IMG/VR virus record: IMGVR_UViG_2695420380_000008
Direction: 5' to 3' (one strand)
DNA from: a virus
Lineage: Duplodnaviria; Heunggongvirae; Uroviricota; Caudoviricetes
Length of the DNA: 6,093 bases
The translations under genes were made by a program, and so were the position numbers. Of this stretch, positions 1,140-1,450 are shown in pieces. The notes beneath the pieces are model-generated. The model was not told the origin of the DNA, searched no databases, and worked only from the letters and a program-made list of their open reading frames with translations. The number at the start of each line of letters is the position of its first letter. The stretch's first letter is position 1.

Positions 1140-1214
1140 TGGAGCGGGCAGCGGGAATCGAACCCGCATCATCAGCTTGGAAGGCTGAGGTAATAGCCAT
1201 TATACGATGCCCGC
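1140..1214 (-). tRNA. tRNA-Gly (anticodon UCC), CCA encoded
   Basis: Reverse complement reads GCGGGCATCGTATAATGGCTATTACCTCAGCCTTCCAAGCTGATGATGCGGGTTCGATTCCCGCTGCCCGCTCCA. Anticodon stem TCAGC/GCTGA, loop CTTCCAA, T-loop TTCGATT. Matches E. coli glyT-type tRNA from memory. Confidence 0.85.
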
Positions 1215-1217
1215 ATA

Positions 1218-1293
1218 TGGTGCCGACTACCGGAATCGAACTGGTGACCTACTGATTACAAGTCAGTTGCTCTGCCTGCTGAGCTAAGTCGGC
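1218..1293 (-). tRNA. tRNA-Thr (anticodon UGU), CCA encoded
   Basis: Reverse complement reads GCCGACTTAGCTCAGCAGGCAGAGCAACTGACTTGTAATCAGTAGGTCACCAGTTCGATTCCGGTAGTCGGCACCA. 7-bp acceptor stem GCCGACT/AGTCGGC, anticodon loop CTTGTAA. One A-C mismatch in the T-stem. Confidence 0.85.
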
Positions 1294-1295
1294 GC

Positions 1296-1372
1296 TGGCC
1301 CACCACCGAGGACTCGAACCTCGCACCGTCAACTTAGAAGGTTGATGCTCTATCCGGATGAGCTAGTGGTGG
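1296..1372 (-). tRNA. tRNA-Arg (anticodon UCU; reads AGA/AGG), CCA encoded
   Basis: Reverse complement reads CCACCACTAGCTCATCCGGATAGAGCATCAACCTTCTAAGTTGACGGTGCGAGGTTCGAGTCCTCGGTGGTGGGCCA. Perfect 7-bp acceptor stem CCACCAC/GTGGTGG, anticodon stem TCAAC/GTTGA, loop CTTCTAA, T-stem CGAGG/CCTCG. Confidence 0.8.
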
Positions 1373-1373
1373 T

Positions 1374-1450
1374 TGGTGGCCCTTGCTGGACTTGAACCAG
1401 CGACCTGGCGATTATGAGTCGCTCGCTCTGACCAACTGAGCTAAAGGGCC
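1374..1450 (-). tRNA. tRNA with CAU anticodon, ileX/ileZ-like (tRNA-Ile2, lysidine-dependent AUA reader) or elongator Met; CCA encoded
   Basis: Reverse complement reads GGCCCTTTAGCTCAGTTGGTCAGAGCGAGCGACTCATAATCGCCAGGTCGCTGGTTCAAGTCCAGCAAGGGCCACCA. Acceptor stem GGCCCTT/AAGGGCC, anticodon loop CTCATAA, T-arm GCTGG-TTCAAGT-CCAGC. Closer to E. coli ileX than to metT from memory; Ile2 versus Met cannot be decided from sequence alone. Confidence 0.8.

Follow-up and report, generated by a model that had tools for sequence, protein, structure and literature searches.

The DNA analysed here (the window; 6,093 nucleotides (nt), IMG/VR record IMGVR_UViG_2695420380_000008) is part of a phage-21-like lambdoid prophage of Escherichia coli/Shigella and carries a compact cluster of four tRNA genes at positions 1140-1450. 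ARAGORN identified four minus-strand tRNA genes in this interval, and the Rfam model RF00005 matched all four with 56.4-70.5 bits (gathering threshold 29; E values of 1e-10 to 2e-14), both here and in a second copy of the cluster that is described below. The tRNA calls are far beyond chance. Counterparts in complete RefSeq genomes are labelled tRNA-Ile, tRNA-Arg, tRNA-Thr and tRNA-Gly by PGAP, with zero pseudogene labels, and tRNA scanners called none of the genes a pseudogene. A sequence-only reading of the window had assigned the anticodons CAU, UCU, UGU and UCC to this interval, which is confirmed. Every gene in the window, including all tRNA genes, is on the minus strand. The cluster is located between a Q-type gene with a tR'-like terminator and a lysis cassette of the phage 21 type, which is the site of other lambdoid tRNA clusters; the same Q/tRNA/lysis layout is repeated in the loci L001, L002, L007 and L010. 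The Q-lysis interval is the usual site for accessory genes (morons), and reports of tRNA clusters in this part of prophages date back to the 1990s. The cluster is genuine and of a familiar kind, and its annotation in RefSeq genomes is already correct.

The genes are transcribed in the order Ile2-CAU, Arg-UCU, Thr-UGU and Gly-UCC, with spacers of only 1-3 nt and with the CCA end encoded in all four. The anticodon loops consist of 7 nt, of which position 33 is U and position 37 a purine (CUCAUAA, CUUCUAA, CUUGUAA and CUUCCAA for Ile2, Arg, Thr and Gly, respectively). The first gene (1374-1450, minus strand; 70.5 bits, found by ARAGORN and labelled tRNA-Ile by PGAP) is of the tRNA-Ile2 type. Its identity of 90% to K-12 ileX and 96% to ileZ of Shiga toxin (Stx) phages indicates an ileX-like rather than a Met-like body, and the proposal of the sequence-only reading that this CAU tRNA is Ile2-like thereby stands. 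The acceptor stem (GGCCCUU/AAGGGCC) contains one compensated pair and keeps C4-G69 and C5-G68; the loop is that of ileX, whereas A27·C43 replaces G27·U43 at the top of the anticodon stem. In work of Ikeuchi et al. from 2005, the determinants for TilS are said to be C4-G69 and C5-G68 in the acceptor stem together with the anticodon loop. Presumably, C34 of the CAU tRNA is converted to lysidine and the tRNA reads AUA.

The second gene encodes a tRNA-Arg with anticodon UCU (1296-1372, minus strand; ARAGORN, 56.4 bits) and is a homolog of argN. It has an unusual C1-G72 acceptor end, as well as A20, C35, U36 and G73. The sequence is 81% identical to argN, which has anticodon UCG, 70% to argU and 61% to argO, and it is 84-86% identical to the tRNA-Lys(UUU) that sibling clusters have in its place. 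With argU it has the anticodon loop, A20 and G73 in common, but the stems differ throughout. The tRNA-Thr (UGU; 1218-1293, minus strand; ARAGORN, 69.8 bits) is identical to host thrU at 74 of the 76 positions, the only changes being U16C and U20C in the D-loop. Its anticodon arm ACUGA-CUUGUAA-UCAGU is the thrU arm, with both CNG motifs and the full stem of 5 base pairs. The tRNA-Gly (UCC; 1140-1214, minus strand; ARAGORN, 64.9 bits) is identical to K-12 glyT over all 75 nt. The impression that these two genes are host-derived, already recorded in the sequence-only reading, is borne out by these identities.

A sigma-70-like promoter is found directly upstream of the cluster (1460-1488, minus strand), with a -35 hexamer TTGCAG (1488-1483), a spacer of 17 nt and a -10 hexamer TATTAT (1465-1460), followed by 9 nt to the 5' end of tRNA-Ile2. 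Among 13 upstream contexts, about 9 with a mutual identity of less than 75%, including those of Stx phage and Lys-type clusters, retain the hexamers, their spacing and the distance to the tRNA, and the spacer and flanking sequences vary freely. From this conservation we infer that TTGCAG-17-TATTAT acts as a promoter. The element is located downstream of a tR'-like intrinsic terminator (2496-2526, minus strand), which consists of a 13-bp hairpin and U7 and is located some 70 nt beyond the Q-type gene. This hairpin was absent from a consensus terminator scan and became apparent by folding; the 103-nt leader that holds it has a fold z-score of -3.8. Weak Rfam matches of the leader (2495-2582) to isrK (2498-2571) and to the Trp leader were also observed. 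The isrK RNA is a Salmonella prophage small RNA from the equivalent Q region.

Since the cluster possesses its own conserved promoter-like element beyond tR', it is probably expressed also outside the late phase. Downstream of the tRNAs and ahead of the holin gene, a strong intrinsic terminator (500-526, minus strand; 10-bp stem with U-run, z-score -3.2) would halt transcripts from the tRNA promoter before they reach the lysis genes; a weaker terminator-like site is present at 862-881. Thus organized, the sigma-70-type promoter would allow transcription of the tRNAs in the lysogen and in early infection, ending before the holin gene, and late in infection read-through by Q-modified polymerase from pR' would add to transcription of the cluster. 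The genes, their homologies, the codon statistics and the conservation of the hexamers are observations, whereas we infer expression of the cluster, processing by RNase P, lysidine formation in the CAU tRNA and a possible gain in fitness.

An identical cluster of four tRNAs is present at 2098-2408 (minus strand; ARAGORN, Rfam), with the Gly gene at 2098-2172, Thr at 2176-2251, Arg at 2254-2330 and Ile2 at 2332-2408, preceded by its own promoter-like element (2418-2446, minus strand). The two copies are embedded in a direct repeat of 859 nt without mismatches (unit 1, 691-1549; unit 2, 1649-2507). The units are joined at 1550-1648 by a 37-mer (1581-1617) with a run of 31 N on either side. Both the second copy and the N-filled junction were overlooked in the sequence-only reading, which described a single cluster between Q and the lysis cassette. 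The site was correct, but the copy reported is the one nearest to the lysis genes, whereas the other copy adjoins the Q gene.

The 37-mer is present in 498 complete E. coli genomes. In locus L003, an Ile-Lys-Thr-Gly cluster is followed by the 37-mer 22 nt past its tRNA-Gly, and the same distance separates the 37-mer from the tRNA cluster of L040. Its position beside other tRNA clusters indicates that the junction is chimeric. No tandem duplication of the cluster was found in the nine best complete E. coli genomes (including L001, L002 and L010), at six sites of two complete genomes, in about 120 IMG/VR loci, or at ten sites downstream of an identical Q-type protein, all of which have one cluster at most. 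After removal of one repeat unit, the window is matched over its full length by the loci L126 and L123. The equal N runs of 31 nt around a tiny node of 37 nt resemble features of an assembly graph. Because none of the complete genomes inspected has two copies and the perfect repeat is joined by N, the second copy is probably a scaffolding or assembly artefact, derived from a source genome with several near-identical prophage regions. Alternatively, it may have originated from a very recent genuine duplication; partial, rearranged duplications near insertion sequence (IS) elements do exist (L038, L040).

Of 5426 complete E. coli genomes, at least 9-10 contain the exact cluster. Three Ile-Arg-Thr-Gly clusters per genome, located in different prophage remnants (L012-L017), are present in Shigella flexneri SFBU1023 and in E. 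coli ECMA0423. Among 126 loci, which are those recovered with a junction pattern, the tRNA in the second slot is of the Arg type in 41 cases and of the Lys type in 79. Downstream of an identical Q-type protein the cluster is present at 8 of 10 places, and at 2 of 10 places it is truncated by an IS insertion. The adjacent Q-type protein itself is found in 3743 blocks of the assembly collection. The Arg version of the cluster is in no sequenced phage of the INPHARED database, in which the nearest relatives are three E. coli phages that carry the Lys version with 93-94% identity.

Among described systems, the ileZ-argN-argO cluster of Stx phages (933W type; Stx2a_WGPS8, L007) is located at the same site, downstream of Q/tR' and upstream of moron and lysis genes. 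The resemblance to this cluster noted in the sequence-only reading is borne out, with the refinement that the Arg gene is related to argN and not to argO: the first gene is Ile2-CAU (96%) and the second belongs to the argN lineage (81%, with the C1-G72 end), whereas argO has no counterpart in the window (61%, which is background level). The same TTGCAG-17-TATTAT element is present upstream. Unlike the gene in slot 2 of the window, which has UCU, argN of the Stx cluster has anticodon UCG. Furthermore, the window adds the host-derived Thr-UGU and Gly-UCC genes, and there is no stx downstream but a stretch of 680 nt without a recognised gene.

The phages SfI, Sf6, ST64T, PS3 and 21 also possess tRNAs at this locus (Asn-GUU and/or Thr-UGU). 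They have the Thr-UGU specificity in common with the window, and phage 21 has the same type of lysis cassette. However, these phages carry one or two tRNAs each, and none is reported with the Ile2-Arg-Thr-Gly set. The tRNA-Thr of phage 21 has an altered anticodon stem and is resistant to P2-OLD, unlike the thrU-like tRNA of the window. The Ile-Lys-Thr-Gly sibling clusters of E. coli prophages (L003; phages PhiR47_1, vB_EcoM-606R7 and vB_EcoS-689R5) are 93-94% identical over the whole cluster and have the same slots 1, 3 and 4, promoter and position, but differ in having Lys-UUU with C33 in slot 2 and another downstream spacer, which holds the 37-mer. Tequatroviruses (T4-like; L138) include CAU, UCU, UGU and UCC among their ten anticodons in a tightly packed cluster that is classically regarded as providing decoders for A-ending codons. 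They are virulent phages with more tRNAs, and show about 80% partial sequence similarity in another genomic context. In the K-12 host, the corresponding genes are scattered, or split by tyrU in the thrU operon, and the phage tRNA-Arg differs from them by its stems and the C1-G72 end. The literature search revealed nothing specific on Shigella prophages with tRNA-Arg, -Thr and -Gly and nothing relevant under the names ileZ, argN and argO; a paper on tRNA reprogramming in enterohaemorrhagic E. coli holds no prophage tRNA data.

We favor, with a probability of roughly 0.55, the explanation that the cluster is an intact four-gene tRNA operon that functions by dosage, i.e. by providing extra gene copies of four minor tRNAs. 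It would add copies of tRNAs that are encoded in the host by thrU, glyT, argU and ileX, and the added tRNAs would read the A-ending codons AUA, AGA (and AGG), ACA and GGA (and GGG). The tRNAs encoded by argU, ileX and glyT are minor and low-copy. In MG1655, thrU is reported to be the sole gene for a UGU tRNA (PMC12445682). Since the Gly gene equals glyT and the Thr gene nearly equals thrU, these two can add dosage only and no new properties. Likewise, Ile2 and Arg have the anticodon loops of ileX and argU, and all four anticodons recur within the tRNA sets of T4-like phages. Genes of lambdoid phages use the cognate codons, which are rare in core genes of the host, 2-12 fold more often. The cluster is widespread and mostly intact, as indicated by the 41 Arg-type loci among the 126, the 8 of 10 Q-protein sites and the threefold occurrence in two genomes. 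A role in codon supply was also proposed for the tRNAs at this site in SfI, Sf6, ST64T and phage 21, and in SfI the codon ACA makes up 17.3% of the threonine codons as compared to 7.1% in the host (PMC3636060).

Codon usage in the window and in a complete related prophage (L010) is in agreement with such enrichment. The holin gene uses ATA twice (codons 7 and 60), AGA twice (codons 61 and 69), ACA twice and GGA once, and the lysozyme part uses ATA twice (codons 20 and 40) and GGA twice. The sequence-only reading had counted three ATA codons in the lysis genes where there are actually four; its count of two AGA codons in the holin gene was accurate. Together, the 153 lysis codons include 11 cognate codons as compared to 2.3 expected (P ~3e-5), the expected counts being derived from 15,000 codons of K-12 core genes, and the six upstream genes have 38 as compared to 13 expected. 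In the late genes of L010 (4060 codons), the enrichment over host core genes is 2.0-fold for ATA, 4.1-fold for AGA, 4.0-fold for AGG, 2.1-fold for ACA and 1.8-fold for GGA, so that the increase of AUA, AGA, ACA and GGA anticipated for late genes was indeed observed. The corresponding values for the early genes (3215 codons) are 3.8, 12, 11, 3.4 and 2.3. The four cognate codons rank among the top 11 of 61 codons in late genes of L010 and among the top 9 in early genes.

Several of these results nevertheless weigh against codon supply as the function of the cluster. Early and regulatory genes of L010 show a greater enrichment than the late genes do, which counts against a role specific for late genes. 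Phage lambda, with zero tRNA genes, has 26 (late) and 60 (early) cognate codons per 1000, as compared to 32 and 55 in L010, and no codon differs significantly between the two. The codon match is thus generic to lambdoid genes and not specific to tRNA carriers: carriage of the tRNAs is not predicted by codon usage, and lambdoid phages can do without them. In terms of codon compensation as described by Bailly-Bechet, the cognate codons are commoner in the phage than in the host, but the bias does not separate tRNA carriers from tRNA-less relatives, as lambda illustrates. Furthermore, the most enriched codon in late genes, CGG, is not read by the cluster. A weak positive signal for codon supply comes from open reading frames (ORFs) flanking Arg-type and Lys-type loci, in which AGA (8.3 vs 6.0 per 1000) and AGG (6.8 vs 4.6) are more frequent beside the Arg type, while ATA, ACA and GGA, for which the matching tRNAs are common to both types, are used equally; this contrast is based on non-independent ORFs that include IS genes, by which the p-values are inflated. 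Of the proposal in the sequence-only reading that the phage supplies its own decoders for late genes, the enrichment of cognate codons therefore remains, whereas the link to late genes is not supported in view of the early-gene values, lambda and the cluster's own promoter-like element. That the codons of a phage match its tRNAs carries little weight if no tRNA-less relative serves as control, and here lambda removes the specificity.

The alternative that survives best, although it is unlikely, is that the phage tRNAs have a function in counter-defence and replace host tRNAs that are cut by defence nucleases or toxins, so that translation is sustained during infection or induction. Enzymes of this kind would be P2-OLD acting on tRNA-ThrU, PARIS or PrrC on tRNA-Lys, and colicin-D-like enzymes on tRNA-Arg. 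P2-OLD cleaves the tRNA-Thr(UGU) of the host, by which lambda is blocked and infected cells are killed; phage 21, which is closely related to lambda, has a UGU tRNA-Thr that relieves this block (PMC12445682). Similarly, PARIS cuts tRNA-Lys(UUU) and a phage tRNA-Lys provides rescue (PMC11464382). The sibling arrays contain several signs that fit such a role. A single lineage of slot-2 tRNAs with the C1-G72 end and bodies that are 79-86% identical carries differing anticodons among phages: UCU in the window, UCG in argN of Stx phages, UUU in the common Lys arrays, where the tRNA has C33 (loop CCUUUAA) and a non-host body, and UUG in Yersinia phage YeP1, where the tRNA is a pseudogene according to tRNAscan. 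This comparison included positions 1296-1372 of the window, 3216-3292 of L003, 3092-3168 of L007, 3086-3161 of L008 and 2502-2579 of L009, and points to an apparent switch of anticodon or identity within a phage tRNA scaffold. In six IMG/VR loci (among them L054, L074, L093, L095 and L125), a thrU-derived tRNA in slot 3 has the anticodon UUU in place of UGU together with A26G, yielding Ile-Lys-Lys-Gly or Ile-Arg-Lys-Gly arrays. This second route to Lys-UUU is hard to explain by supply of tRNAs for rare codons, since AAA is a common codon.

A resistance-like variant is also present in E. coli CFSAN029787 (L002, 5976-6051), where the 3' side of the anticodon stem of Thr-UGU has changed from UCAGU to UCAUC. 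By this change, two base pairs and the CNG motif on the 3' side are lost. This corresponds to the two-factor signature of P2-OLD resistance, which the copy in the window lacks. According to the published data, host tRNA-ThrU protects little or not at all, and resistance to P2-OLD requires altered CNG and a shortened stem together (PMC12445682). Since the anticodon arm in the window is exactly that of thrU, with both CNG motifs and all five base pairs, a role of this tRNA-Thr as an anti-P2-OLD tRNA of the Thr21/Thr6 type was rejected. The tRNA-Gly is also indistinguishable from glyT, the anticodon loops of Ile2 and Arg are identical to those of the host, and no nuclease specific for Ile2-CAU, Arg-UCU or Gly-UCC was found. 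The tRNA-Arg, which is 70% identical to argU and has different stems, could escape an enzyme that recognises argU. The copy in the window is thus without the resistance signature, but the sibling signs suggest that counter-defence stays a live option for the family as a whole. A more elaborate and more doubtful version is that the Q-lysis tRNA array is a modular counter-defence cassette of which the slots are re-aimed by anticodon switching, with the window representing an 'Arg' state of a set of tools that would evolve in response to tRNA-cleaving immunity, and in which the Arg-UCU tRNA would be a nuclease-proof replacement of argU. The anticodon switching and nuclease-resistance signatures of the siblings bear on the debate about codon supply versus evasion of defence, and this material, which lies outside the window, is the most interesting found here.

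The extra tRNA copies could also serve the lysogen instead of the phage. In such lysogenic conversion, which we regard as quite improbable, the cluster would raise the host pool of minor tRNAs and would thereby aid AT-rich, horizontally acquired genes, for example on the Shigella or enteroinvasive E. coli virulence plasmid or in pathogenicity islands, rather than phage genes. In view of the promoter-like element of the cluster and the terminator that precedes the lysis genes, the lysogen may plausibly express the tRNAs, and the cluster is kept in decayed, IS-riddled and non-inducible prophages, with three clusters in the representative genome of Shigella flexneri. However, defective prophages could have kept the cluster neutrally and for a short time only, and the truncation by IS elements at 2 of 10 places indicates that the cluster is dispensable in some strains. 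Whoever benefits, a cluster that probably has its own promoter may change the tRNA pool of the lysogen, and in S. flexneri three copies would raise roughly fourfold the dosage of three tRNAs for which K-12 has one gene each; a similar increase applies to E. coli ECMA0423. That the tRNAs are neutral passengers, gained by illegitimate recombination (Thr and Gly from the host thrU-tyrU-glyT-thrT operon) and persisting unselected, is very unlikely: the identical Gly and near-identical Thr genes do suggest a recent host origin and lambda does well without such tRNAs, but the spacing of 1-3 nt contrasts with the arrangement in the host, in which thrU and glyT are separated by tyrU and a spacer of 116 nt, and this tight spacing, the conservation of the promoter across diverged flanks and the intactness in most of about 130 loci with compensatory stem changes argue for purifying selection.

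The genes around the tRNA region follow a lambdoid layout, with the transcription order QueH, hok/sok, Rem, DUF1367, YbcO/DUF1364, Q-type gene, terminator-ended leader, tRNA region, holin and lysozyme. The Q-type late antiterminator candidate (2598-3152, minus strand) matches Pfam DUF1133 with E = 2e-107 and Phage_antitermQ with 29.4 bits (cut-off 26). It is preceded by genes for a YbcO/DUF1364 nuclease (3149-3439), a DUF1367 protein (3439-4038) and a Rem-family protein (4077-4364), all on the minus strand. The lysis cassette consists of a class II holin of the phage 21 type (244-459, minus strand; Pfam PF04971, E = 1.5e-35) and the N-terminal part of an RrrD-like lysozyme (1-244, minus strand; Pfam PF00959, named rrrD by PGAP), which continues past the edge of the window.

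The spacer of about 680 nt between tRNA-Gly and the holin gene (460-1139) has no recognisable gene or RNA family: a 98-amino-acid ORF in it is without a Pfam match, there is no Rfam match at E <= 1, and PGAP places no gene here in related genomes. Toxin genes of Stx and LT-II phages occupy this position between tRNAs and lysis genes. Sequenced phages show fragmentary similarity only, including a partial match of 71% to an LT-IIb prophage, and the spacer is 99-100% conserved across many Shigella and E. coli loci. A long hairpin (636-690) in the spacer has an end that coincides exactly with the repeat boundary. Sub-threshold Rfam matches to plastid ycf2 on the plus strand are antisense echoes of the tRNAs and were disregarded.

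A further tRNA-related cargo gene is found a few kb upstream of the cluster. It encodes the tRNA-modification enzyme QueH, an epoxyqueuosine reductase (4997-5662, minus strand; Pfam E = 2e-65). Epoxyqueuosine reduction in E. coli is normally carried out by QueG. Between this gene and the Rem gene, the prophage harbors a complete hokD/sok type I toxin-antitoxin module (4614-4939, minus strand), composed of the Hok peptide (4614-4769) and the sok RNA (4764-4939, minus strand; 117 bits). The Hok ORF possibly has a Mok-like upstream extension that reaches position 4826. IS elements flank or interrupt the Q-tRNA region in many Shigella-type loci, and in strain FDAARGOS_943 an IS1 element (L001, 7597-8363) is inserted in the Q-terminator leader, with a target duplication that corresponds to window positions 2546-2555.

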